Shown in pieces: positions 4,502 through 60,624 of a stretch of 64,000 bases of DNA (position 1 is the first letter of the stretch; the number at the start of each line of letters is the position of its first letter). The stretch is from an uncultured Clostridium sp. (lineage in GTDB: Bacteria > Bacillota > Clostridia > TANB77 > CAG-508), in contig CANPNZ010000002.1 of the NCBI GenBank assembly GCA_947575605.1, positions 31,020-95,019 of the forward strand. Direction: 5' to 3'. The notes beneath the pieces are model-generated. The model was not told the DNA's origin, made no database searches, and worked only from the letters and a program-made list of their open reading frames with translations. The position numbers and the translations under genes are program-made.

Positions 4502-4862
4502 ACCAAGTCAAGTAATATACCAAAACTCCCCTCTTGTTGAAGTAAAAAATCACAGGAGAGGAGTTTTGGTACTATTCTAAATAATATTTTAAAGTTTCTC
4601 ATGGGAAACCAAATACGTGATATTATCTCAATAGGAGATGATATCATGAATTATTATAAAAAAAGTAAGAAGATATTTAAGGAAAAAATAAAAGAAAATA
4701 GAAATATTAGTAAAGTGGAATGGGATGAATTCGCTCAAGAAAACTCTTTATTTAGTGCTAATACCTTAATGTTTCATGTTGACGCTAAATCTTTTGAAAA
4801 TTTAAAAGAAAAACTTTCATAAAAATTAAAGAAAATGCAAATACTAAAGATGAGGGATTTTT

Positions 4863-13316: not shown

Positions 13317-14643
13317 ATGGAAATTGAAAAAATAGAAACTAATTTAAAAAGAAATTTATACCTTCATTCTTCCTCTAGGAAGTTTTCCTCTCAAGCGAAA
13401 CAAATAGAAAATCAAGTAATTCGTATTAATCCAGAATTTACGTTTCAAGAAATTCTTGGATTTGGAGGAGCTTTTACAGAAAGTTCTTGTTATGTTTTAA
13501 GTAAGCTTCCAAAAGAAATCTCAGAGCAAATTTTAGAAGAATATTTTTCCCCTAATGGTTTACAGTATCAATTTGCTAGACTCTCGATTGGAAGTTGTGA
13601 TTTTTCTTTAACTAGTTACTCATATTCTTACGAAAAAGATTTGTCAGACTTTTCTATTCATCATGATATGAAATATATCATTCCCATTATTAAATCTGCT
13701 CAAAGACAAAATGGAAATCTTAAATTTCTTGCTAGTACTTGGTCTCCTCCCGCTTTTATGAAAGATAATCAGAGTTTAATGGGTGGTGGTAAATTATTAT
13801 CTCAATATAGAAAATTATGGGCCGAATATCTTGTAAAATATGTTCGTAGCTATCAAGAACAAGGGATTCCTATCTCCTATATGACAATTCAAAATGAACC
13901 AAATGCCAAACAAATATGGGAATCCTGTTTGTATTCTTCGAAAGAAGAAGCAGACTTACTAAGAAATTACTTATCCCCTACTTTCAAAATAAATGGATTG
14001 CCTACACAATTTTTGATATGGGATCATAATAAAGATATTATATTAGAAAGAAGTCTTGAAACACTAATTCATCATAATGCTTTAACCGCTAGCAGTGGTA
14101 TTGCTTTTCATTGGTACACAGGTGGACATTTTGACAGTTTAGAAAGATTACGTCATCTATTCCCTAATTTACTTTTATTTCATACAGAAGGTTGTACTGG
14201 TTATTCTCATTTTAAACCAAAAGATGAACTATTTAATGCGGAAATGTATGCTTATGAAATGCTAGAAGATTTTAATCATGGCGTAAATGCCTTCATCGAT
14301 TGGAATATCATTTTAGATTATAGTCGGTGGTCCCAATCACGTTAAAAATTATTGCAATAGTCCTATTATGATGGATAAAAAGGGAACTGGTTATAGTAAG
14401 ACTCCTACTTTTTATTATATTTCACAGTTAGCTAAATTCATTAAACCTGGTAGCAAAAGAATTCATTTTAATAAATTTTCTGAAGATATTTCCGTATCTG
14501 CCTTTAAAAATCCGGATAAAAGTGTTATTATAGTATTGTTAAATAAAACGGATAAAAATGTCGAATATAATTTGTGTTATAATGAGTTTACTCTTCATGA
14601 TAATTTGGATAGTCATGCGATTGTAACTTATAGAATTAATTGA
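13317..14643 (+). pseudogene. glycosyl hydrolase family 30 (glucosylceramidase-like), frameshifted near 14325
   Basis: N-terminal GFGGAFTE. The hallmark GGPNHVKNYCNSPI appears only in another frame across 14330-14370. Confidence 0.6.
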
Positions 14644-14661: not shown

Positions 14662-15654
14662 ATGGATACTATGATAAATCGAGAAGATAATCCAGAATTC
14701 GTAAATTCTTTTTTAGATTATTCTATTACTATTTTAAATAAATCACCCAATAGTATTAAAGAATACAATTATGATTTAAGTATGTTTTTAAGGTTTATAA
14801 AATTACATTTTCATATGACCGAAAAAACGGATTTAAAAGAAATTAAAATAGATGATATGACAATTGATACCATAAAGAAAATTACATTAGATGATATTCA
14901 TGCTTTTATTTCCTATTTAACTCGTGAGTATCATAGCAAAGCTACTACTAGAGCTAGAAAGGTTTCAACGATTCGAATCTTCTTTAAATATCTAAGTAGA
15001 AAAGCAAAATTAATTGATGTTAATCCAGCACAAGATTTAGAAACTCCTAAATTAGATAAAAGATTACCGAAATATTTATCTTTAGAAGATAGTAGAAAAC
15101 TACTTGCTATTACTTCTAATGAAGATAACAGAAATTGCGAAAGAGATTATGCTATTATTACTTTATTCTTGAATTGTGGTATGCGTCTTTCTGAATTAGT
15201 TGGTATTAATCTTCAAGATATTGATTTTGGAGAATGTAAATTAAATGTTATTGGTAAGGGTAACAAAGAAAGAACGATTTATTTGAATAGAGCTTGTATG
15301 AAAGCAATTGCTGATTATATGGAAGTACGACCAAAACAAGGTATTAAACATGATAGTAAATCTTCTGAAAAAGCACTTTTCTTGAGTGAAAGAAAAACTA
15401 GAATTAGTAATCGAACGGTTGAAAATATAGTTTCTAAACAATTACAATTAGCAGGTCTGGATACTAAAAAATATTCCGTTCATAAGCTAAGACATACGGC
15501 TGCTACTTTGATGTATCAATATGGACAAGTTGATATTCGAGCTCTTCAAGAGCTTTTAGGACATGAGAGTATTGCTACTACTGAAATATATACTCACGTT
15601 AGTAATGATCAAGTTCGTAACGCAGTAGAAAATAATCCATTGGCTAATTTATAA
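14662..15654 (+). CDS. tyrosine recombinase XerC/XerD family
   Basis: N-terminal SAM-like domain; C-terminal catalytic RHT...HESIATTEIYTHV with catalytic Tyr. Confidence 0.85.
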   Translation: MDTMINREDNPEFVNSFLDYSITILNKSPNSIKEYNYDLSMFLRFIKLHFHMTEKTDLKEIKIDDMTIDTIKKITLDDIHAFISYLTREYHSKATTRARKVSTIRIFFKYLSRKAKLIDVNPAQDLETPKLDKRLPKYLSLEDSRKLLAITSNEDNRNCERDYAIITLFLNCGMRLSELVGINLQDIDFGECKLNVIGKGNKERTIYLNRACMKAIADYMEVRPKQGIKHDSKSSEKALFLSERKTRISNRTVENIVSKQLQLAGLDTKKYSVHKLRHTAATLMYQYGQVDIRALQELLGHESIATTEIYTHVSNDQVRNAVENNPLANL

Positions 15655-31963: not shown

Positions 31964-33859
31964 ATGACTATTTATGAAACAACCAAAAAAGAATTTTTAG
32001 AAAATATGAAAAATCAAACTGTCTTTGAGCAATTAGAAAAAGCATATACTGAAAAATTAAAAAAGCCAAATTATAAACTAACCAATTCGTGGAATGGTTC
32101 TTTTCCTTATCTATATATGGTTTTAGAAGATGAAAGAATCCCTGAAAATTGTGGGATTAGTATAGAATATGTTATTCCTAATATTGATAAGGACAAAAGA
32201 ATTGACTTTCTTATTACTGGTTATGACAATAACAAAAACAGAATAATAATACCAATAGAAACAAAGCAGTGGTCAACTGTAAAACACCCCGCTAATAAAA
32301 TCGGCTTTATAGAAACTGACTTTTCCTCTAAAAAAAATAATTTAAGTATTCATCCCTCCTATCAAGTTTGGTCCTATTCTCATTTTTTAAAAGAATATAA
32401 TCAAGCAATTCAAGAAGAAAAAATTTCAATTCATCCATGTGTATTAATGCACAATTATAAAAAAAGTGAAAATAATTTGTTAGAAGATAATTATAAAAAA
32501 TACATTGAAAAAGCTCCTATTTTTTATCGTAATGACTTAAAAAAATGTTCTGATTTTATTGCCAATAAAATTTGTTATGGTGATGATAAGAAAATTCTTC
32601 ATATTCTTGAAAAAGGAAAAATAACATTATCCAAAATCTTACAAAATGAAGTTCCAGATATTATGAAATATTCTAATTTTGCTACGCTAATTGATGAACA
32701 ACAGATTGTATATGAAACTGCAATGAAAATGGCTAAACAATCTAAAAAAGATAATAAAAAAAGGACTTTAATTGTAAAAGGTGGTGCTGGTACTGGAAAA
32801 ACAATTGTAGCTTTAAAAATTTTAATAGATCTTTTAAAAAATCCAGAAAATAACATCAAAAAAATAGATTTTGTTTCTGCTGTACAAACTGTAAGTGAAG
32901 TATGCAAATATAAATTAAAACAATCAAATATTTATAAAGAATATTTAAAGAACTTCAAAACTGCTAGCCAATATTTTAAATGTAGCAACAATGAAAAAGA
33001 TGTGGTAATTGTTGATGAAGCTAGAAGATTACGTGAAAAATCCGGATTTTTTTCTCAAGATGGAGAAAATCAAATAAAAGAAATTATACTTTCTAGTAAA
33101 TTTTCTATTTTCTTTGTTGACAATTTACAAAAAGCTACCTTAAAAGATATTGGAAGAACTGAAGAAATAAAAAAACATGCTAAAAATTCCAATTCTTCTA
33201 TAACAGAATTGGAATTAACCTCCCAATTTAGATGTTCTGGTTCTTCTGTTTATATCACTTGGCTAGAAAATACTTTACAACTGGGAACACCTAAAGAATT
33301 ACATGATAAATTTGATTATGATATTAAAGTAGTTACTACTCCTCAAGCATTACAAAAACAAATAAGCAAAAAGAATGAAAAAAACAATTTTTCAAGAATT
33401 GTAGCTGGCTATTGTTGGGATTCTGTAAAGGGAAATAGAAATGATCCTGATTTCTGTGATATTCAAATTCCAGAATATAACTTTCAGATGAGTTGGAATT
33501 TAATTGGCACTAAAACATGGGCAATTGATGAAAATTCTATTGAACAGGTTGGATGTGTTTATACTTGTTCTGGATTAGATTTTGAATATGTTGGTGTTAT
33601 TATAGGAAAAGATATGATCTATAAAAATGGAAAAATACAAACTGATGTTAGGCATAGAGCTCGTACGGATAATGCACTAAAAGGTATTAAAACACAATTG
33701 AAAAAAGATTATCTTCCTTCTTATCAATTAGCTGATGAAGTTATTAAGTCTACTTATCGAATTTTGATGACAAGAGGTCAAAAAGGATGTATTATATTTT
33801 GCCAAGATAAGGCACTATCCAATTATCTAAAAGAAGAAATTAAGAAATATAAAATGTAA
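31964..33859 (+). CDS. DUF2075-type protein: N-terminal PD-(D/E)xK-like nuclease domain fused to an SF1-like P-loop ATPase (Schlafen-like helicase)
   Basis: RIDFLITG...IIIPIETKQW (D/E-K); Walker A GGAGTGKT; VVIVDEARRL; motif VI-like ILMTRGQKG. Confidence 0.6.
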   Translation: MTIYETTKKEFLENMKNQTVFEQLEKAYTEKLKKPNYKLTNSWNGSFPYLYMVLEDERIPENCGISIEYVIPNIDKDKRIDFLITGYDNNKNRIIIPIETKQWSTVKHPANKIGFIETDFSSKKNNLSIHPSYQVWSYSHFLKEYNQAIQEEKISIHPCVLMHNYKKSENNLLEDNYKKYIEKAPIFYRNDLKKCSDFIANKICYGDDKKILHILEKGKITLSKILQNEVPDIMKYSNFATLIDEQQIVYETAMKMAKQSKKDNKKRTLIVKGGAGTGKTIVALKILIDLLKNPENNIKKIDFVSAVQTVSEVCKYKLKQSNIYKEYLKNFKTASQYFKCSNNEKDVVIVDEARRLREKSGFFSQDGENQIKEIILSSKFSIFFVDNLQKATLKDIGRTEEIKKHAKNSNSSITELELTSQFRCSGSSVYITWLENTLQLGTPKELHDKFDYDIKVVTTPQALQKQISKKNEKNNFSRIVAGYCWDSVKGNRNDPDFCDIQIPEYNFQMSWNLIGTKTWAIDENSIEQVGCVYTCSGLDFEYVGVIIGKDMIYKNGKIQTDVRHRARTDNALKGIKTQLKKDYLPSYQLADEVIKSTYRILMTRGQKGCIIFCQDKALSNYLKEEIKKYKM

Positions 33860-33958: not shown

Positions 33959-34557
33959 TTATTCACAAGGTTTCCTATCATTCATATAAAATTTTTTCTC
34001 TGCTAATTTATCTTGAACGCCACGTAGTGCTTCTCCAAATCTTTGGAAATGGACTACTTCTCTTTCTCTTAAATATCTTAATGGATCTAAAACATCTGGA
34101 TTGTCACGGCAAAGATCAATTAATTTTTCATAGGTCGCCCTTGCTTTTTGCTCTGCTGCTAAGTCTTCTTGTAAGTTTGCAATTGGATCTCCTTTACAAG
34201 CAATATATGCTGCTGTGAATGGTACTCCTGCTGCTGATGCTGGATATACGTCTACTCCATGATCCGTATAATATGGTGCTAATCCTGCTTTTTCAATTTC
34301 TTCAATGCTTGCTCTGTCTGTTAATTGGTGTACTATGGTTCCTACCATTTCTAAATGGGCTAATTCTTCGGTTCCAATATCATTTAAAATAGCTTTTGCT
34401 TTTTGATCTGGCATACCAAATCTTTGAGAAAGATATCTTAAAGAAGCAGCAAGTTCTCCATCAGGTCCACCATATTGAGATATAATCACTTTAGCAAGTT
34501 TTGGATCTGGACATTTTATATTGATTGGATATTGTAATGTTTTATTATAAGTCCACA
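33959..34557 (-). CDS. cotJC: spore coat protein CotJC (manganese-catalase-like)
   Basis: MWTYNKTLQYPINIKCPDPKLAKVIISQYGGPDGELAASLRYLSQRF is near-identical in pattern to B. subtilis CotJC. RBS AAGGGGG. Confidence 0.85.
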
Positions 34558-34639
34558 TTAATAATTCCCCCTTTCCCATGGCCAGTTTTCGTTTTGTTTG
34601 GAGGAACTATTTGTTTATACAATTTTTATATCCATATTT

Positions 34640-34707
34640 ATCATTAAAGTGGATATTAAATAGCCTTCAAATGGATACCTTTAATATATCCACTGGGGGC
34701 TTTTTTT
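34640..34707 (+). terminator. hairpin plus T-run built from inverted TTAAAGTGGATAT motifs
   Basis: aagtggatattaaa...tttaatatatccact followed by GGGGGC T7. Confidence 0.5.
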
Positions 34708-34958
34708 AGTATCTTTAAAGTGGATATTTTGAGAGGCTTCTAATATGCTAAAAATAAGTCAAAACTCAAAAAAAGTTGTTTGGAGTTTAAAGGGTATGAT
34801 ACAGGAAAAGGGATTTCAAGAAAATTAAGTGTGTATATTGTTTTATGTTTTGATATGGATATATAGCTGATAAAAATTAATGTAAAAATTTGTTGAAGAG
34901 ACGAATTTTTTATGATAACATACTATCAAGATTTATTTAAGTAATTAGGAGATTTGTA

Positions 34959-35489
34959 ATGAAATTATATGTAATTAGACATGGTGAAACTAATATGGGT
35001 AAAAATGAAATTATAGCAACTGAAGATGAGCCATTAAATGAAACAGGTATCCAACAGGCTATAGCAGTTGGAAGAGATATTAAAAAGTTAAATATTAATA
35101 AAGTATTTTGTTCTCCAATACCAAGAGCAAAACATACATTAGAATTATTTGGATTAAATAAAAATATTCCTGTGATAATTGAAAATAGAATAAAAGAACG
35201 AGATATGGGAATATATGAAAAAGTTCCTTTTGAGCAACTTAAATGGGATGAATTTTGGAATTATAATTCAGATAGATTATATCCAGAATTAGAAACTATG
35301 AAAAGTGTATATGAAAGGATATCAGATTTTCTAAATGAATTAAAATCAAGTAATAGTAATGATAATATTTTATTAGTTACACATGGAGGAATATCAAGAG
35401 CGATTTATTGGTATTTCAATGGAATACCAGACAATGGGAATTCATCTAATATTAATGAAAATTGTAAAATCTATAATTATGAACTATAA
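34959..35489 (+). CDS. histidine phosphatase family protein (phosphoglycerate mutase-like)
   Basis: RHGE catalytic motif at N-terminus; HGG motif. Confidence 0.7.
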   Translation: MKLYVIRHGETNMGKNEIIATEDEPLNETGIQQAIAVGRDIKKLNINKVFCSPIPRAKHTLELFGLNKNIPVIIENRIKERDMGIYEKVPFEQLKWDEFWNYNSDRLYPELETMKSVYERISDFLNELKSSNSNDNILLVTHGGISRAIYWYFNGIPDNGNSSNINENCKIYNYEL

Positions 35490-35504
35490 AGAAAGGATTT
35501 AAAA

Positions 35505-36029
35505 ATGAAATTATATTTAGTAAGACATGGAGAAGTAAATCATAATTTATATGGATTGTATAACAGAGAAGATGAGGACTTAAATGAAACAGGAATACAA
35601 CAAGCAAAGAATTTAAAAGAAAAAATTAAGGCTATAAAATATGATTTTATTATCTGTTCTCCATTATCAAGAGCAAAACATACTGCTGATATTATTAATA
35701 TTGATAATAAAAATATAAAAATAGATGATAGACTTAAAGAACGAGATCCAGGTAGTTTAAGTGGACAACCCATCGAAGTAACAAATAGAGAAGAATATTG
35801 GAATTATTATACATCTATTCAATATGGTACAAGTGAAAATATTAAAGAATTTTTTAATCGTGTTTACAATTTTTTAGATGAGTTAAAAACAAAGGATTAT
35901 GAAAACGTTTTAATTGTAGCTCATAGTGGAGTATCGAAAGCATTTAATGGTTATTTTAATGGAATAGTTGATGGTAAATTCTTAAATAGAGGATTGAAAA
36001 ATTGTGAAATAAAAGAATATGAAATGTAA
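35505..36029 (+). CDS. histidine phosphatase family protein (tandem paralog)
   Basis: RHGE motif; paralog of the preceding gene. Confidence 0.7.
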   Translation: MKLYLVRHGEVNHNLYGLYNREDEDLNETGIQQAKNLKEKIKAIKYDFIICSPLSRAKHTADIINIDNKNIKIDDRLKERDPGSLSGQPIEVTNREEYWNYYTSIQYGTSENIKEFFNRVYNFLDELKTKDYENVLIVAHSGVSKAFNGYFNGIVDGKFLNRGLKNCEIKEYEM

Positions 36030-36480
36030 AACTAATATTAAAGTGGATATATTTTTCTTCTATAACCTTTGAAACATAAGCCTTTAAAAAATTTGCATGT
36101 ATATATTTTCAAAACAATTAAAATATTATATAATCACTTTAGTAACAATTAACATTCAAATTGCTACTACAAAACTATATAAAAAAATAAGTAAACACTT
36201 TTTGAACTAAAATGAATAAATATAAATTATCTTCGGACAATTTATATTTATTTTTTTCGTTCATAAACTTATGTAGAAGGTGATTCAATGCAAAAAAACA
36301 CATTACAACCTAAAGTAAAAAATATATATAATGAAAATGGCTTAACACTTACAGAATTAATACAAGAATGGTTAAATGAAAATTATTTTTTTTGGAATTT
36401 AAATAATGATAAAAATGAAATAAAATATAAAGGTATAAATAAATAGTTATCGTAAATTTAAACTCTGGAAAGGAGGATAA

Positions 36481-38031
36481 ATGCAAGAGTTAAACTATAA
36501 CTTTCCCCCTACTTATTTTAAAGTAGGAATTTACACAAGACTTTCAAGAGAAGATGAAAAAGACAAAGAATCTGAAAGTATTGATACTCAAAAAAAGTTA
36601 TTAACAAACTATATAAAAAGTCAAGGTTGGACTTTATTTAAAATATATGTAGATGATGGATTTACTGGTACAAATTTTAATAGACCAGATTTTAAAAATT
36701 TAATAAATGATATTGAACTTGGTAATGTAAATGTAGTCATTACAAAGGATTTATCAAGACTTGGCAGAGATTATATTGAAACAGGTTATTATTTAGAAAA
36801 ATACTTTCCATTAAAAAATGTAAGATATATTGCTTTAAATGATGGAATTGATACATTTGATAATAACAACACCAATAATGATATGACACCATTTAAATCT
36901 GTTTTTAATGATATGTATGCAAAAGATATCTCAAAAAAAGTTCGTTCCAGTTTGCTAACAAAAGCATCAAGTGGACGAAATATCAAATCTTTTTTACCTT
37001 ATGGCTATAAAAAAGATGAAAAGGACAAAAATATCATTTTAATAGATTATGAAGTTTCTCCTATTGTTCAAAAAATATTTGAAATGTATTATGCAGGAAA
37101 TAATAAAACTGAAATATGTAGATATCTAAATAAAAATAAAATACTAACACCACTTGCCTATAAAAGAAAAACTACAAACTATTATAATCCAAATAACAAA
37201 ACAAATTTATGGAGTACAACCATGATTTCTAAAATTCTTAGAGATAGAATTTATACAGGAGATTTAGTACAACATAAATATAGCAAATTGAATTACAAAA
37301 CTAAAAAAATTATTGATGTACCAAAACAGCAACATATTATTATTGAAAATAATCACAAACCAATCATTGATAAAAATATTTTTAATAGTGTTCAAATTAT
37401 GCTTGATAAAAAATCAAATGAATGGAATTATACCGCTTCTTCTGCTCATTTGTTACAAGGGCTAGTTCTATGCAAAAAGTGTAAATCAAAAATAACCTAT
37501 AATAAAAATCATGGAAAATATTTTAGATGTGTGTGTTCTTCTTATAAAAGAAATGGTAGTAAATTTTGCTCTAATATCCATTTAAGAGAAGATACTTTAA
37601 TTAGTAGTGTAATTACTAGTTTGAAAGAAAACATTTCTGATTTTCTAAAATACGATGAATTAGAATATATCTGTCCTAATACACAAATAGATAATAAAAA
37701 ATTAGATTATTTGAATTCTAAAATAACTGAAAAGGATGATTTGATCCAGTCTTTATATGAAGATAAAGTAAAAGGAATTATCACAGAAGATTTATTTATC
37801 AAACTTTCTAAACAATATGAAGTAGATAAAAAAACTTTACTAAATCTAGTTCAAAAAGAAAAAGAGATTAATAAGAATACAATAAAAAAAGAAGATTTAA
37901 TCTGTAATGTGAAAGAATTATTAGATTTTAATGAAAATAACCTAGATAGAAATTTGCTTTTAAAATTAATTGATAAAATAGAAATAGATGATGACAATAT
38001 TGAAATTTATTATAAATTTAAAGCCATTTAA
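36481..38031 (+). CDS. large serine recombinase (resolvase domain + recombinase domain + zinc ribbon)
   Basis: YTRLSREDE catalytic Ser region; LSRLGRD; Cys-rich zinc-ribbon CKKCKS...CVCSSY; C-terminal coiled coil. Confidence 0.9.
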   Translation: MQELNYNFPPTYFKVGIYTRLSREDEKDKESESIDTQKKLLTNYIKSQGWTLFKIYVDDGFTGTNFNRPDFKNLINDIELGNVNVVITKDLSRLGRDYIETGYYLEKYFPLKNVRYIALNDGIDTFDNNNTNNDMTPFKSVFNDMYAKDISKKVRSSLLTKASSGRNIKSFLPYGYKKDEKDKNIILIDYEVSPIVQKIFEMYYAGNNKTEICRYLNKNKILTPLAYKRKTTNYYNPNNKTNLWSTTMISKILRDRIYTGDLVQHKYSKLNYKTKKIIDVPKQQHIIIENNHKPIIDKNIFNSVQIMLDKKSNEWNYTASSAHLLQGLVLCKKCKSKITYNKNHGKYFRCVCSSYKRNGSKFCSNIHLREDTLISSVITSLKENISDFLKYDELEYICPNTQIDNKKLDYLNSKITEKDDLIQSLYEDKVKGIITEDLFIKLSKQYEVDKKTLLNLVQKEKEINKNTIKKEDLICNVKELLDFNENNLDRNLLLKLIDKIEIDDDNIEIYYKFKAI

Positions 38032-38134
38032 ACTTTTAAAACCAAATTCTAATAAATTCACAATAGAGATTGTAAATTCAATTTGAACTTGCTATAATAT
38101 ACATATAAATTACAAAGAAAGGAGCTGATTAACT

Positions 38135-38431
38135 ATGTCTGAAACACAAATACAAGCAATCAAAGATGTTATAAAAATGACACCACGACTTAATATAGAA
38201 TGTCTAAATTCTGTTAAAATTCTAATGGAAAAAGCTATTGATTCAGAATTATTAAGACTAGAACCTACTGTCATTTTAGAAAACATGGATATTACGGAAA
38301 AAGTAATGTATTTGGACTATTTAACAGAAAGCAAAGATACCAAAGAAAAAGAACAAAAAAATGCAGTATCTTTTGAAGAAATACTAAAAAGAGAGGGGTT
38401 GACTTACGATGATTTACAAGATAAAAATTAG
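38135..38431 (+). CDS. putative antitoxin (upstream partner of the RelE/ParE-like gene)
   Basis: Small acidic protein whose stop overlaps the start of the toxin-like ORF. Confidence 0.45.
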   Translation: MSETQIQAIKDVIKMTPRLNIECLNSVKILMEKAIDSELLRLEPTVILENMDITEKVMYLDYLTESKDTKEKEQKNAVSFEEILKREGLTYDDLQDKN

Positions 38432-38655
38432 ACCCAAAGCTCTCAAATTTATTGAAAAACAAGACAAAATTCAAAAACTACGAATTTACAAAGCAATTTA
38501 CAACCTGCCCAATGGCGATGTTAAGAAAATGGTAGGTTGTAAAAATGAATATCGACTTCGAGTTCGGTGATTATCGTATTATTTATGAATTAAATCAAGA
38601 TGAACTTATTATTTTAGTAACAAAAACTGACAACAGAGGACAAGCTTATAAGTAA
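38416..38655 (+). pseudogene. RelE/ParE-family toxin, frameshifted near 38565
   Basis: MIYKIKIRPKALKFIEK...NEYRLRV, then +1 frame GDYRIIYELNQDELIILVTKTDNRGQAYK, matching the RelE/ParE fold. Confidence 0.55.
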
Positions 38656-38710
38656 TGATTTTTAAATCTTTAAAATTAAACTCTAAATCAAATTTTTATT
38701 CAGAAAGAGT

Positions 38711-39079
38711 TTAAACTACTCCCAAACCAAACGAAACCCATGGCTCTTCCAACCATCTCCATTTATTACAAGGGTACTGAATGGTAAGAGGTCCATATAC
38801 TTTTTGGTATTTATCTTTTAAATCTTTTACATATTTGCAATACTTTCTATGCAAACAAAGTGCTTTTTCATCTTCTGGATGGGTATCTAAATATAATGCC
38901 AATTCTGTAATAGCAAAATCATAACATCTAATTTGTTCGATCATTTCTCTTCTTTCTTCACAATCAACTGTTCTTTCTACTTCACAAGTACAGTTATTAG
39001 ACATATTAGATACCATCATAGCATCATCCATATGGTTGTTACAACTGCAACCACAATTTCTGCTTTCTTCTACTGACAT
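38711..39079 (-). CDS. cotJB: spore coat protein CotJB with Cys-rich N-terminal extension
   Basis: CotJB signature LYLDTHPEDEKAL...YGPLT...EEPW. Confidence 0.8.
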   Translation of the reverse strand: MSVEESRNCGCSCNNHMDDAMMVSNMSNNCTCEVERTVDCEERREMIEQIRCYDFAITELALYLDTHPEDEKALCLHRKYCKYVKDLKDKYQKVYGPLTIQYPCNKWRWLEEPWVSFGLGVV

Positions 39080-39426
39080 TTATTACACCCCTTTCCAATT
39101 TCATTGGTTTCTCTTATATAGTTTATTTCCTCCATAGATTGGCCAGGTACATACGGACTAACTAATTCTGGAAAAATCGTTCCCATTTTTAAACCAACAC
39201 ATGGTTTAAAAGTTTTATCCATATATTGAATTGGTACATAACTTTGAGCTAACATTGGGTTTTCTGGAAACATATTATATTCTTCGTCAAATCCACAGTC
39301 ACAACTATTAGAATATTCTTCATAAGAAACTACATCATTACATTGTTTTTCTATCATATCATTTTGCATTTCACATGAATCATTATGATAACTATTATTC
39401 ATACAATAACATTTTCTTCTAAACAT
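39070..39426 (-). CDS. cotJA: spore coat protein CotJA
   Basis: CotJA signature SYVPIQYMDKTFKPCVGLKMGTIFPELVSPY; start MFRRK with GGAGG RBS. Confidence 0.75.
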   Translation of the reverse strand: MFRRKCYCMNNSYHNDSCEMQNDMIEKQCNDVVSYEEYSNSCDCGFDEEYNMFPENPMLAQSYVPIQYMDKTFKPCVGLKMGTIFPELVSPYVPGQSMEEINYIRETNEIGKGCNKCQ

Positions 39427-39993
39427 TTTCCTTCCTCCTTCTATTAACATAATATGTTTCTTCTTTGTAATATGATACAAAGTAATTTTCTAGTATAAAT
39501 TTAAACAATCATAACCACCCGTAAAACGGATGGTTTGCTCTAATCCTTTTTTCATTTTTCTTTCTTTTTCCTTTTCTTCTTTTTCAAATGGGTCTACATA
39601 TTCTTTAATACTTATTTGATCTGTTGCTATATCTTTTTGTAACTGCTTTCTTATGTATTCTTCTATTACTTTTTTATTTTTACCTACTGTATCTACATAA
39701 TAACCTGTACACCAAAAGTACCTATTTCCATATTTCTATCTATTTTCATAGATAAATTTCCTCCTTTGATTTTTATTTTTGAGGTTGACCAAACCAACAA
39801 TATTATATCAAAGAAGGAGATTTATTTTACTCATAGCTAGAAGCCTTTAGAACCCCACGTATAACATGAGGTTTTCATTATTCAACAAAATGCTAGTGAT
39901 AAATTACATCACTAGCATTAATCATTTTTCTTCAAAACTCAGATTAAATTCCCGTCTCGCCTATTCTATATCTTATATGTCACTTTTTTTAAA

Positions 39994-48785: not shown

Positions 48786-49355
48786 TTATTTTGTTTTATC
48801 TAATCTATTGCATTCCTTTTTATTTTCAAGACATTTTTTAGGCGGTTCTTGGAAACTCAAATACCAACTAATTCCATTTCCATTTTTTTCAATTTCTTCA
48901 TTTCTTGTTTGTAATTTTGCAAAAGTTTTAGGTGGCGGAACAATAACAGGTTGCCCTGGCATCCAGTTCGCTGCCGTAGAACCTTTGCTACAATCTGCCA
49001 TTTGCAATGCTTGCACAGTTCTTATAATTTCTGGAATAAATCGTCCTACATTTAGTGGATAAATTAATATCGTTCTTACAATGCCTTTATCATCAATAAT
49101 GAATACATTTCTTACTGTTTCTGTATTACTTATATCATTGGCGATCATTCCATATTTTCTGGCAATTTGACCATTTCTGTCTGCAATAATAGGAAACGAT
49201 ATTTTTATTCCTGTTTTACAATAAATGTCATACATCCAAGCTAAATGCGAACTGTTACTGTCTACACTTAGCCCCAATAATTCTGTGTTTAATTCCTGAA
49301 AATATTTTTGTGCTCTAGTAAAAGCTATCATTTCTGTTGTACAAACAGGGGTGAA
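48786..49355 (-). pseudogene. 1-Cys peroxiredoxin (Prx6-like), C-terminal fragment (from the CTTE of the active site onward)
   Basis: Begins ...FTPVCTTEMIAF; the upstream 46 codons are missing here and are found at 60400-60545. Confidence 0.8.
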
Positions 49356-49378
49356 GTACACATCTTTGGGTGTCATTT

Positions 49379-50959
49379 TTAAATCATTTTTTCAATATCT
49401 GTTTTTAATTCAAATTTTATCATTTTATCTCTATTTATATAAATTTTATCTATGAGCATTTGCAAAATCATTCTATTAGGTACTTCTGATTTTATAATTT
49501 CATCAAAATATTCAATTGAATTTCTTAACTTATTTCCTTTTTCTTCTAAATGCTTTTTTTCATCTTCTTGTAATAATGCTTTTAAATAAGAAATATTTTT
49601 TACTTTTTCCTTTTCAAGTTCTTTATATGTATTTTCAATAATCTTTCTTGCTATTTCATTATTAGCAGATGCCAGCTCTTTAATTTTTTGATTAACTAAC
49701 ATTTTATATTCTTCATTTAAGATGTTTATATTGTTTCGTAACTTAATTTTATTATCTTCTTTCTTATTTTGTTTTATTTCAATCTTAATATTTTGTATTT
49801 CTTCTAAATATTGCTTTTTAGTAAATTTTAAAAATTCTTTTAAATGTATTAAAATATCTTTTTCTTTAACCTCGTGGCAGTGACAAGCTTTTGTACTAAA
49901 TTGTCTATATCTTGAACAATCATATCCCTTTTCTTTTACTTTTCTCCTAATTACTATACCTGACATTCCTGAACCACAATCTTCACACTGACACATTCCT
50001 GAAAAATAATAGTCTCTTTTTGTATTTGTTCCTGAAGTATTTTGTTCATTCTTTTTCTTTCTTATTTCTTGTGCTAACTCGAATATTTCCTTTGAAATAA
50101 TTGGCTCGTGATGATTTTCAAATACAAAATGTTCTTCTTTTGGTAGCTTTACAGCTTTTCCTCTAATATTTACTGTTCGCTTTTTATGAGTAATTAAAGT
50201 ACCTGTATAAATCTCATTTTTTAATATATTACTTACCATATCTTTTGTCCAATCTTCTTGAACTTTGTGTCTATAAACTCTACCTTTTTCTAAATGTTTC
50301 ATTCTATAATATTCAGATGGTGTTGGATAATTATATTTTGTATTTAATATTTCGCTAATCTTTTGAAATCCATATCCATTTTCAACATATAATTTAAATA
50401 TAACTTCAATAACTGGTTTTAGTTCGTCTATGATATAGAGCATAGGTATATCGTCTTTAAAAACTTTTTCATAGCCATAGTAATTTCCCATAATTAGTCT
50501 TGCGTTTTTTTGCTTAGAATACATATGATCTCTTGTTTTTCTTGAGCAATCTTTTACATATCTTTCATTAAACCAAGTAGTTATTCCAATCGTATCATCT
50601 CTGTCATTTAAAACATCATAAGTTCCGCCCATTTCTGAAACTAGAATTAGATTTTTTTGCATATTTTTAAATTCATCTATAAGCACTAAAACTCTTCCAT
50701 TATTTCTGCCAATTCTTGATAAATCTTTTGCTATAACTACATCAATTTCTCCTCCTTTTACTTTCTCCATCATTTTTGAAAATTCAGGTCTATTAAAGGT
50801 ATATCCCGAAACATTGTCATCTATGTAGAAGTCTTCATCTTTGATAATCCAATTACAAGCCACTGCATAATCTTTAATAATTCTTTTTTGTTCCTCTATG
50901 CTTGAATAATTTTCTTTATCTTCATCTCTAGACAATCTACAATATCCTACAACTGTCAT
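49379..50959 (-). CDS. large serine recombinase
   Basis: GYCRLSRDEDK catalytic Ser; DLSRIGRN; zinc ribbon CQCEDCGS...CSRYRQ; long coiled-coil C-terminus; AAAGGAGG RBS. Confidence 0.9.
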   Translation of the reverse strand: MTVVGYCRLSRDEDKENYSSIEEQKRIIKDYAVACNWIIKDEDFYIDDNVSGYTFNRPEFSKMMEKVKGGEIDVVIAKDLSRIGRNNGRVLVLIDEFKNMQKNLILVSEMGGTYDVLNDRDDTIGITTWFNERYVKDCSRKTRDHMYSKQKNARLIMGNYYGYEKVFKDDIPMLYIIDELKPVIEVIFKLYVENGYGFQKISEILNTKYNYPTPSEYYRMKHLEKGRVYRHKVQEDWTKDMVSNILKNEIYTGTLITHKKRTVNIRGKAVKLPKEEHFVFENHHEPIISKEIFELAQEIRKKKNEQNTSGTNTKRDYYFSGMCQCEDCGSGMSGIVIRRKVKEKGYDCSRYRQFSTKACHCHEVKEKDILIHLKEFLKFTKKQYLEEIQNIKIEIKQNKKEDNKIKLRNNINILNEEYKMLVNQKIKELASANNEIARKIIENTYKELEKEKVKNISYLKALLQEDEKKHLEEKGNKLRNSIEYFDEIIKSEVPNRMILQMLIDKIYINRDKMIKFELKTDIEKMI

Positions 50960-50996
50960 TTTTCCTCCTTTTGCCTGATATTGCTCTTGGTCTATA

Positions 50997-51230
50997 TTAG
51001 CATACATTGTCCGATAACTCCACTTGTTTCGCAATTATTTTTTTGAGAATTTCGGGATAATTCTTTGTTCCTGTTACAAATATTCCAATTTTATACTTTT
51101 GTTCTTCATATTTTTCAATTGTTTCTTTAGTTTCTTGTTGTTCTAATTCTTCTTTAGTTAGATAAATTTGCATATATTTGGTATTAGAGATTTCATTAGA
51201 AGTAATTTGCATATTATTTAACTCCTTCAT
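50997..51230 (-). CDS. small conserved protein upstream of the recombinase (paralog at 56528-56761; possible directionality/regulatory factor)
   Basis: 77 aa, about 75 % identical between the two elements, co-oriented and immediately upstream of each recombinase. Confidence 0.45.
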   Translation of the reverse strand: MKELNNMQITSNEISNTKYMQIYLTKEELEQQETKETIEKYEEQKYKIGIFVTGTKNYPEILKKIIAKQVELSDNVC

Positions 51231-54904: not shown

Positions 54905-56484
54905 TTATATTAGTTTTTCAACATCTACTTTTAAATCAAATTTTACAGTTTTATCACTATAAATCCATATTTTATCTATTATATTTTCTAAAACATATCT
55001 GCTTGGTATTTCTTTTGCAATAATTTCATCGAAATACTCTATTGTATTTTTTAGCTTTTTTATTTTTTCTTTTGAAATTTCTTGTTCTTCTTTGTTTAGT
55101 ATTTCTTGTAATTTTTCTATTTTGTTTGTTTTATCCAGTTCTAATTCTTTATATGTATTTTCTATCATTTGTTTTTGATATTCATTTGTACTTGATGCTA
55201 AATCTTTTATTTTTTGGTTTAATAAAACTTTATATTCTGCCTTTAAAGTTTCAAGTTCATATTTAATCTTTTCTTTATTAGTTTGCATATTAGTAGTTTT
55301 TGTCTCAATTTCTATTTTAGTTATTTCATCAATATATTTTTGTCTTGTAAATTTTAGAAACTCCTTTAAATGAATAATCATATCAGTTTCTTTTATTTCA
55401 TGACATTTACATCTTGTTTTCCCATAAGTTCTATACTGGGAACATTCATATCCTTTTTGCTTTTGTTTTCGATTCATGGTTATACCGACTTACTCCAAAT
55501 CCACAATCACCACATTTAACTAATCCAGAAAAAGCATAGTTTCTTTTTCTTGTCCCGACAAGTACTTTTTGAATTTGCTTTTCTTTTTCTAATTTCTTGT
55601 GCTAATTCAAATGTTTCTTTTGAAATGATTGATTCATGATGATTTTCAAATACAAAATGTTCTTCTTCTGGAAGTTTAATTGCTCTGCCTCGTATAGAAA
55701 CAGTTTTCTTTTTATGAGTTCTTAAGTTTCCTGTGTATACATCATTATTTAAAATATTACTTATCATATAGGTAGACCATAATTTTTGTACAGGATGTTT
55801 GTATATTCTTCCTCTTTCTAAATGCTTTTGTTGATAATATACAGAAGGAGTAGGGTAGTCATATTTGCTATTCAAAATATCACAAATTTTCTTTCTACCT
55901 AAACCATCTTCAATATATAGTTTATATATTAATTCTATAACAGGTCGTATTTCTTCATCTACATATAACTTTGTAACATCTTCTGTATCTTTTACATAAC
56001 CATAATAATTTCCCATTATTAATCTTCCCGATTTTTGTTTAGAATACATATGATCTCTTGTCTTTCTTGAACAGTCTTTTACATATCTTTCGTTAAACCA
56101 TGTTGTAATTCCAATTGTATCATCTCTGTCATTTAAAACATCATAAGTTCCTCCCATTTCTGAAACTAGAATTAAATTTTTTTGCATATTTTTGAATTCA
56201 TCAATAAGTACTAAAACTTTTCCATTGTTTCTTCCAATTCTTGATAAATCTTTTGCTATTACAACATCAATTTTTCCTCCTTTTACTTTTTCAATCATTT
56301 TTGAAAATTCAGGTCTATTAAAGGTATATCCCGAAACATTGTCATCTATGTAGAAGTCTTTGTCTTCGATAATCCAATTACGAGAAATAGCATAATCTTT
56401 TATAATTCTTTTTTGCTCTTCAATACTTGCATAATTTTCTTTATCTTCATCTCTAGACAGTCTACAATATCCTACAATGGTCAT
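54905..56484 (-). pseudogene. large serine recombinase paralog, disrupted by at least 2 frameshifts in the zinc-ribbon region (55480-55570)
   Basis: N-terminal 340 aa about 80 % identical to the 49379-50959 product. Middle segment RNYAFSGLVKCGDCGFG is readable only in a third frame. The C-terminal 190 aa continue in a third ORF. Confidence 0.8.
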
Positions 56485-56527
56485 TTTTTCCTCCTCACTT
56501 GACCTGATATTGCCTATGTGCTGTATG

Positions 56528-56761
56528 TTAGCATACATTGTCTGTTAATTCCACCTGTTTCACAATAATTCTTTCAAGAATTTCGGGATAATTCTCTTTT
56601 CCTGATATAAAAATAGCTATATAATACTTTTCTTTTTTATATTTTTCAATTTTTGCTTTTGTTTCTTGTTTTTTCAGTTCTTCTTCCGTTAAATAAATTT
56701 GCATATATTTGGTATTAGAGATTTCATTAGAAGTAATTTGCATTCTATTTAACTCCTTCAT
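56528..56761 (-). CDS. small conserved protein upstream of recombinase (paralog of 50997-51230)
   Basis: Paralogy and position. Confidence 0.45.
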   Translation of the reverse strand: MKELNRMQITSNEISNTKYMQIYLTEEELKKQETKAKIEKYKKEKYYIAIFISGKENYPEILERIIVKQVELTDNVC

Positions 56762-60399: not shown

Positions 60400-60545
60400 A
60401 CGGGGGTAAAATCGCCTGGATGTGAAAATAATACTAACCATTTTCCTTGATAATCTTCTAGTTTAATTTCTCCAAATGTTGTGTTTGCTTCAAACTCTGG
60501 AGCTTTTTGTCCGATTTTAACATTTCCATTCATCATTAATTCATA
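60400..60545 (-). pseudogene. 1-Cys peroxiredoxin, N-terminal fragment ([15 protein letters not shown]...[11 protein letters not shown])
   Basis: Ends exactly at the FTPV of the peroxidatic-Cys motif and then reads through into element DNA. Confidence 0.8.
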
Positions 60546-60624
60546 ATCCATAAAAAACAAACTCCTCTCATTTTTTATATCATATGAGAAAAGTTTGTTT
60601 TGGTTACATGATTTATTAGATTTG

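Follow-up and report, generated by a model that had tools for sequence, protein, structure and literature searches.

The stretch of DNA analysed here (the window) is 64,000 nucleotides of contig CANPNZ010000002.1 from an uncultured gut Clostridium sp. It contains the spore-coat genes cotJA, cotJB and cotJC on the reverse strand, and between cotJB and cotJC lies a block, the element with which this report is concerned, in which all genes are on the forward strand according to the listing of open reading frames (ORFs) and Pfam scans. GC content drops from ~0.31–0.38 in the cotJ genes to ~0.20–0.25 in the block, and the GC skew changes sign. The locus comprises:

39070–39426, reverse strand: cotJA, 118 aa from an ATG with ribosome-binding site (RBS) GGAGGAAGG (PF11007, 3.8e-13), also called as 118 aa in the empty-site contigs described below
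38711–39079, reverse strand: cotJB, interrupted, 122 aa (PF12652, profile positions 2–73 of 76)
34585–38740: integrative element, 4,156 bp, delimited by comparing the flanks with the empty-site allele
34558–34582, reverse strand: displaced 3′ end of cotJB, ..G CCA TGG GAA AGG GGG AAT TAT TAA, encoding (W)PWERGNY* and holding the cotJC RBS and the TAATG overlap
33959–34558, reverse strand: cotJC, intact, 199 aa, a manganese-catalase-family coat protein (PF05067, Mn_catalase, 2.5e-55)

A preliminary description of this locus had placed cotJA and cotJB at these coordinates, in agreement with the matches to PF11007 and PF12652; its identification of cotJC also stands, with the start corrected from 34557 to 34558 on the reverse strand. 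That description proposed that a mobile serine-recombinase element splits a contiguous cotJABC, and the comparison with empty sites that it suggested bears this out. Four metagenome contigs (L001–L004) encode exactly the same 199-aa CotJC protein, carry cotJA, cotJB and cotJC uninterrupted, and share the window's neighbours, with a Schlafen-like helicase and Sua5 on one side and DUF308 and L32 on the other. When the window flanks are joined, they are 98.3% identical over 1,658 bp to three of these contigs and 91.9% to the fourth, and the element is the sole difference besides scattered mismatches. It might alternatively be argued that the order is ancestral and non-mobile, with cotJC always apart from cotJAB; the contiguous operon in near-identical genomes, the precise 4,156-bp difference, the attachment (att) site architecture and the variation of cargo among species between identical junctions refute this, nothing was found in its favour, and we give it next to no credence.

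The empty-site allele (L001) reads GAAGAGCCATGGCCATGGGAAAGGGGGAATTATTAATG; there the native CotJB ends in EEPWPWERGNY*, its stop codon overlapping the cotJC start (TAATG), and the displaced 3′ end in the window is identical to this native end. The window itself reads GAAGAGCCA-TGG-GTTTCG on the cotJB side and CGAAAAC-TGG-CCATGGGAAAGG on the cotJC side. The crossover falls after the first PW codons, with native cotJB coding down to 38741, while the last eight codons and stop of the present cotJB (38711–38737, VSFGLGVV*) are element DNA and form part of an attP arm. CotJB has thus lost its conserved tail PWERGNY, in place of which it has VSFGLGVV, and cotJB no longer overlaps cotJC at the stop and start codons. 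The interrupted CotJB lacks Pfam profile positions 74–76 and scores 79.7 bits as against 91 for the native allele, which covers positions 2–76, and joining the flanks in silico at the crossover restores both the natural empty allele and the full Pfam CotJB match. A CotJB structure from which the function of the PWPWE tail might be judged was not found. The earlier statements, of three intact genes and of an interruption that falls between ORFs, are thus wrong in detail, as the insertion lies inside the cotJB ORF, seven codons before its stop.

The two junctions, on the evidence of the empty-site comparison, are:

38715–38765: attL (cotJB side), forward strand CTCCCAAACCAAACGAAACC-CA-TGGCTCTTCC, inferred crossover CA at 38739–38740
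34560–34612: attR (cotJC side), forward strand TTTCCCATGGC-CA-GTTTTCGTTTTGTTTGGAGG, inferred crossover CA at 34583–34584

Both lie just outside the ranges first suggested for them (34600–34800 and 38650–38710). The only sequence common to attL, attR and attB is TGG (3 bp, cotJ strand). The rebuilt attP reads CTCCCAAACCAAACGAAACC-CA-GTTTTCGTTTTGTTTGGAGG on the forward strand, and in a scan of all centres its inverted-repeat symmetry reaches 16/20 at the CA and no more than 9/20 at any other centre; TG (CA on the forward strand) is favoured as the crossover dinucleotide because it is the centre of this inverted repeat. At the junctions, attB reads GAAGAGCCATGGCCATGGGAAAGG and attP ...CGAAACCCAGTTTTCG..., and the same attL junction occurs in 27 or more other genomes. 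Within attB there is a perfect palindrome, CCATGGCCATGG, coding for PWPW. A 7-bp repeat, CCATGGG, was considered as the core and ruled out by the empty site, where attB contains CCATGGCCATGG and only TGG overlaps. Judged from these sequences, the att geometry is of the type expected for a serine integrase, with a non-palindromic central dinucleotide that would fix the orientation of recombination.

The part of the element presumably responsible for its movement consists of:

36481–38031, forward strand: large serine recombinase (LSR), 516 aa, with Resolvase (PF00239, 1.6e-21), Recombinase (PF07508, 1.7e-23) and Zn_ribbon_recom (PF13408, 2.7e-10) domains; phrog_95 integrase, 1.7e-95
36288–36446, forward strand: orf52, a small acidic 52-aa ORF, 35 nt upstream of the LSR gene
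36242–36269, forward strand: promoter-like site of the orf52–LSR operon, TTATATT, 13 nt, then CATAAACT at 36262–36269
36210–36257, forward strand: AT-rich hairpin (inverted repeat I20, 22-nt arms, 86% complementary) and, after it, a T run

The recombinase and the 52-aa ORF had both been reported from the window, and both are present as described. The catalytic PF00239 domain of the LSR spans residues 17–166, with Ser22 in a YTRLS motif. Its nearest solved relatives are the N-terminal domain of TnpX (4.8e-33) and SprA (9e-14, aligned over residues 18–497), the latter being the closest full-length one, and among NCBIfam models it most resembles CcrB (2.6e-30) and XisF (4.4e-29, below cutoff). 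The small ORF has no family in Pfam, PHROGs, NCBIfam or PADLOC; it is found upstream of the LSR gene in every family member with sequence there, and its motif L-T-x-L-[IV]-Q-[EDQ]-W-[IL]-[ND]-[ED]-N is kept across the clade, including elements whose LSR is only 54–56% identical. The motif is retained in spite of third-position variation, so orf52 is a real coding gene, and its constant linkage makes it a candidate recombination directionality factor (RDF) of the LSR.

The LSR family was surveyed with one genome per species, by tblastn and junction searches. Recombinases 86–98% identical to that of the window occur at 35 loci in ~34 species-representative genomes, all of them metagenome-assembled genomes (MAGs) of uncultured gut Clostridium or Clostridia with sample labels such as mouse-catalogue (MGBC), wild-mouse and ‘Lapin’. 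All of the 35 loci with enough flank show the cotJB junction, the cotJC junction or both, and none lies elsewhere. Gene order in the family is cotJC, attR, cargo, orf52, LSR, usually orf98 and RelE, attL, cotJB and cotJA, with element sizes, from junction coordinates, of 3.5–9.1 kb. The cargo varies from histidine phosphatases to MatE and nucleosidase/HD/YgjV genes and is missing in two members (L030, L031), and the orf98–RelE module is missing in three (L020, L021, L028); since both come and go, orf52 and the LSR make up the invariant core. More distant recombinases, 54–56% identical, use the same TGG overlap in cotJB (L041, L042, L050–L056) and are carried by a 3-kb mini-element, a 9-kb element with a dockerin protein, and an element (L055/L056) that resembles an integrative and conjugative element (ICE) in that it carries a type IV secretion system (T4SS) coupling protein and a sortase. 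We consider it almost certain that the element was inserted in the cotJB tail by its own LSR and that this LSR belongs to a site-dedicated family; by sequence, the recombinase lineage is dedicated to the cotJB-tail attB across many gut Clostridia. An entire LSR lineage would so be tied to a single 3-bp crossover point of a coat operon in ~34 uncultured gut species, and the family offers genome engineering a set of natural LSR, attP, attB and candidate-RDF quartets with defined sites. Phage collections held no close relative of the LSR (best integrase, 36% identical), and matches in plasmid collections reached only 5% coverage.

One way to read this distribution is as that of an integrative element that is simply selfish and plays no part in development, using the cotJB tail only because its PWPWE-coding sequence is conserved and the gene dispensable; excision would then be sporadic or linked to transfer, and carriers would have an altered CotJB and a silent or weakly expressed cotJC. 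That an ICE-like relative uses the same attB fits such a reading, yet the mapped members of 3.5–9.1 kb have no recognisable transfer or phage genes and nonetheless persist in ~34 species.

Insertions in this operon extend beyond cotJB. In most relatives cotJC is also split by a second LSR element (LSR of ~519 aa, 24–27% identical to that of the window) with the core GG[T/A]AC[T/A]GAAGAAT, located after DIGTEE in the ExxH metal-binding helix, and in some a third LSR (33–36% identical) splits cotJC near residue 104–120. Examples of split cotJC lie at 4700–5000 in L005, 1451–6108 in L010 and 336–6109 in L034, with others in L011, L013, L020 and L042. The cotJC fragments can be joined again in frame. 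A single three-gene operon can thus be interrupted by as many as three different LSR elements, and in annotating MAGs ‘truncated’ cotJB and cotJC genes should not be counted as pseudogenes.

Selection on these genes was estimated by the Nei–Gojobori method, comparing the window with each element-bearing locus:

LSR: dN/dS 0.10, dS 0.36
orf98: dN/dS 0.08, dS 0.33
RelE N half: dN/dS 0.07, dS 0.32
RelE C half: dN/dS 0.09, dS 0.41
orf52: dN/dS 0.40, dS 0.11
cotJC 5′ part: dN/dS 0.08, dS 0.60
cotJA: dN/dS 0.11, dS 0.77

These ratios indicate that the genes of the element are functional, and the host cotJ genes are likewise under strong purifying selection when the window is compared with its element-bearing relatives, although part of that divergence may predate the insertion. 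Element dS is about half that of the host (0.33–0.41 against 0.60–0.77), which implies transfer between species. The dS of orf52 is far lower (0.11) than that of neighbouring element genes (0.33–0.41), and the ORF may therefore be constrained in its nucleotide sequence as well, for instance by an RNA element, a binding site or a promoter of the LSR gene inside it. For the selfish reading, the addiction-type RelE module under purifying selection is what one would expect; less readily accommodated is a dN/dS of 0.08 for cotJC and its fragments, even where the second LSR element splits the catalytic ExxH helix.

The insertion separates cotJC from the cotJ promoter and from translational coupling to cotJB. 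On the cotJC strand the nearest CATAnnnT within element DNA is 240 nt upstream of cotJC, so that nothing obvious would drive cotJC expression in the integrated state. The distant relatives differ in layout: in L041 the LSR gene abuts cotJB as in the window, whereas in L042 and L050–L056 it is at the cotJC-proximal end and co-directional with cotJC, which could there be read through from the LSR operon.

The promoter-like site ahead of orf52 ends ~21 nt before the orf52 ATG. All 31 aligned elements share the sequence TTCATA[A/C]ACTT before orf52, including those with unrelated sequence further upstream; five elements have CATACACT in place of CATAAACT, and in the divergent 54–56% clade CATAnnnT likewise stands shortly before the RBS of the small ORF. 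In Clostridioides difficile, sigmaE and sigmaK share a CATA-type −10 (e.g. CATATTAT or CATATAAT) and differ only at the −35 (PMC3789822). The conserved −10 before the orf52–LSR operon would therefore be of the mother-cell type (sigmaE/sigmaK), and its retention across clades is a further point against the selfish reading. A scan for sigma-70-type promoters gave 46 sites against 41±7 in shuffled sequence, i.e. no excess. The hairpin at 36210–36257, positioned between the cargo genes and the orf52 promoter, probably insulates orf52 and the LSR gene from cargo transcription. Upstream of cotJA the window has a conserved mother-cell-type −10 box, CATATTAT, and host cotJA promoters in general (window 39427–39520 and the same region at 27 loci) show a −10 of CATAT[T/A]AT ~25 nt before the RBS; the −35 and spacing are ambiguous across hosts, and we do not assign these promoters to sigmaE or sigmaK. 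The cotJ operon is sigmaK-dependent in C. difficile (PMC3789822), and the title of Henriques 1995 gives it as sigmaE-controlled in Bacillus subtilis. Many cotJA promoters also have upstream GTCA/GTCG or GTAAC motifs, some of them like the SpoIIID box KRTAACARK. The cotJA promoters of these hosts could define a mother-cell promoter consensus for this uncultured group.

These features suggest a mechanism of developmental excision. The mother cell would transcribe orf52 and the LSR gene from the sigmaE/sigmaK-type promoter, shielded by the hairpin from cargo transcription; orf52, as directionality factor, would enable the LSR to recombine attL and attR; and recombination at TG would rebuild cotJB–cotJC just when the coat is made, the element leaving as a circle. 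The forespore would keep its integrated copy, so that the element is transmitted, and the RelE-type module and phosphatase cargo would be accessory in such a skin- or gin-like process. We lean, with no great assurance, towards this whole account, in which the cotJB-tail insertion works like skin or gin; as to the narrower claim, that excision is developmentally programmed, we regard the case as evenly poised.

Several observations weigh against the developmental account. In the AT-rich DNA of the window, CATAnnnT occurs ~2.3 times per kb per strand, and the orf52 promoter has a weak −35 (ATA, its spacing falling one below the normal range), so that it is conservation that carries the promoter call. 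The low element dS, presence and absence within one species and the toxin module are matched just as well by a purely selfish element spreading horizontally. The degenerate attP junction AAAYGAAMCCCAGKTTTCGTTT, used to look for the excised circle, had 0 matches in IMG/VR, while two JGI metagenome matches to the junction proved to be chance, sharing nothing else with the element; the exact LSR was found on one further contig, in integrated form. As orf52 is apparently co-transcribed with the LSR gene, RDF-free integration would be left unexplained, and no resemblance of orf52 to a known RDF was detected. B. subtilis cotJ mutants are viable, and carriers might tolerate the loss of CotJC. The undetected excised form, like the within-species polymorphism, is what a selfish element would predict, and we give that alternative a substantial chance, though one well short of even. 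Separately, a 4.8-kb contig with a 91%-identical LSR was considered as a free circle and rejected, as it has a Mn_catalase (cotJC) fragment beside the element.

The occurrence of both states in nature for the same species may also point to a reversible on/off switch operating in growing cells, which would create subpopulations whose spores differ in CotJB and CotJC content. LSRs can catalyse both directions depending on an RDF (PMC5025042), and the yin element of Clostridium botulinum has mixed integrated and excised populations (PMC10747680). We nevertheless find such a switch improbable: the element has no recognisable replication function, so a circle would be lost on division, the apparent single operon of orf52 and LSR favours one direction, and attP contigs were not found in IMG/VR or the JGI metagenomes.

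Developmental excision, the reading towards which we lean, has precedents among known elements. Among the nearest is gin, in gerE of Bacillus cereus ATCC 10987, with its GirC serine recombinase and GirX directionality factor (PMC5595907): both are small non-phage elements inside a short mother-cell sporulation gene, and both have an LSR with a small accessory protein, an attP-type inverted repeat around a central dinucleotide and a short common core at the junctions. GirX and orf52 are likened here by description only. Whereas gin targets gerE and has three recombinases, the present element targets the last seven codons of cotJB in an uncultured gut Clostridium with one recombinase and has, unlike gin, a RelE module and phosphatases as cargo; for gin, excision specific to sporulation has been demonstrated, while for the cotJB element it is only inferred.

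The skinCd element in sigK of C. difficile, with the CD1231 LSR and CD1234 RDF (PMC5025042), is likewise a clostridial LSR element in a mother-cell gene, the two recombinases again being likened by description only. CD1234 is a small acidic protein of 72 aa with a sigmaE promoter, its transcription starting 14 bp before the start codon (PMC5025042), and orf52 has the same geometry, being a small acidic partner protein with a CATA-type promoter very near its start codon. In skinCd, RDF expression confines excision to the mother cell, and we propose the same logic for the cotJB element. The two differ in that the skinCd recombinase is constitutive and its RDF a separate sigmaE/SpoIIID-dependent gene, while orf52 and the LSR look like one operon, and in that skinCd blocks a master regulator, while the operon hit by the cotJB element encodes coat proteins and has a minor phenotype. 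The SPbeta SprA–SprB system in spsM of B. subtilis (PMC4191935, PMC5499854) also combines an LSR with a small RDF and rebuilds a spore-envelope gene upon excision; SPbeta is, however, a 134-kb active phage, and the cotJB element has 4.2 kb and no phage genes. A further case is the yin element, which interrupts yabG (PMC10747680).

According to a citing preprint, Abe et al. 2013 (Mol Microbiol 90:415) report cotJC among the genes often hit by phages or transposons; on that account the operon is the same landing site, while the site here is the tail of cotJB. We found no description of a cotJB-tail insertion in the searchable literature, in which Abe et al. 2013 figures through that preprint and may overlap with our observation, and CotJ is unmentioned in the text and supplements, Table 2 lying outside this check, of the Mageeney 2020 survey of regulated gene integrity. 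The kind of element, one that intervenes in a sporulation gene, is known; its cotJB target, dedicated LSR lineage and candidate RDF family appear from our comparisons to be new, and cotJB joins a short list of sporulation genes that bear recombinase-borne intervening elements. Excision elements of Anabaena heterocysts (the fdxN element with XisF, and those in nifD and hupL) are likewise DNA rearrangements of a terminal cell. As with the LSR elements in the cotJ operon of the relatives, several of them interrupt one functional gene set; they differ in phylum, targets and developmental programme, and no common membership is implied.

The remaining part of the element is made up of cargo and a toxin-like module:

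34959–35489 and 35505–36029, forward strand: two tandem histidine-phosphatase genes (PF00300, 4e-38 and 1.9e-35)
34639–34657, 34710–34728 and 36033–36051, forward strand: three copies of the repeat TATC[A/T]TTAAAGTGGATATT (D4), bracketing the phosphatase cargo
38135–38431, forward strand: orf98, 98 aa, candidate antitoxin, overlapping the toxin start by 23 nt
38409–38655, forward strand: RelE/ParE-like toxin in two frames, N part 38409–38570 (53 aa), C part in the +1 frame at ~38566–38655

The preliminary description had recognised the phosphatases as paralogs, which their His_Phos_1 domains and 42% identity support, and had seen a frameshifted RelE-like gene with an upstream partner, matching the +1 frame change and the 98-aa ORF found here. 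The best NCBIfam resemblance of the phosphatases is to CobC-type alpha-ribazole phosphatase, below its cutoff. The first two repeat copies form part of a hairpin followed by the T run GGGGGCTTTTTTT, and a similar hairpin with AAAGTGGATAC occurs in L005; the repeats may serve as a terminator or mark a cassette boundary. No Pfam, PHROGs, NCBIfam or PADLOC family matches orf98 above threshold, and it is accessory because some family members lack it.

In the RelE-like gene the shift site is GTT-CGG-TGA, and removing one base gives an 81-aa sequence that matches phrog_1213 at 1.5e-17; against NCBIfam TIGR02683 the protein scores 19 bits, with a cutoff of 62.85. The gene as a decaying pseudogene was ruled out: the frame change is kept in the elements of ~20 species at GTT-CGG-[T/C]GA (L005, L006, L010–L046), and both halves have the low dN/dS given above. 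Among the Arg codons of this genome CGG is the rarest (2/246), and the +1 frame has a conserved ATG of its own that would give a 36-aa ORF. The gene may be read either as one requiring a programmed +1 frameshift or as a two-piece toxin, and its conserved frame change deserves attention in its own right as a possible case of recoding or of a split toxin.

If all of these features were combined, the cotJ operon might be a multi-lock developmental DNA switch. The cotJB-tail element would have to excise with orf52 as an RDF expressed in the mother cell, one or two further, unrelated LSR elements in cotJC would have to excise in many relatives before the coat catalase could be made, and the element would be held in the germ line by a RelE toxin needing a programmed +1 frameshift at the rare CGG. 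In this full form the proposal is speculative and rather unlikely.

Elsewhere in the window there is a 1-Cys peroxiredoxin gene that is interrupted at the active site, with a 5′ part (~60428–60560, reverse strand) that ends in GDFTPV and a 3′ part (48786–49376, reverse strand) that starts with ..YFTPVCTTE. The ~11 kb between them hold a 551-aa LSR (49379–51034, reverse strand) beside the 3′ part, a radical-SAM/SPASM gene and a helix-turn-helix gene, as well as a 340-aa LSR-like ORF (55516–56538, reverse strand), so that a further intervening element seems to be present here. In C. difficile, the coat protein CotE has a peroxiredoxin domain. A GH30 glycosidase ORF (13317–14345) is closely followed by a tyrosine recombinase (14662–15654, forward strand; Phage_integrase, 3.9e-40); the latter is probably the ‘first’ family meant when the cotJ recombinase was called a second recombinase family in the window, a fair statement given its presence. 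Finally, adjoining cotJC is a 631-aa Schlafen-group-3-like helicase (31964–33859, forward strand) that weakly resembles the candidate defence model PDC-S41 of PADLOC (2.9e-14); as the empty-site contigs have it too, it lies outside the element.

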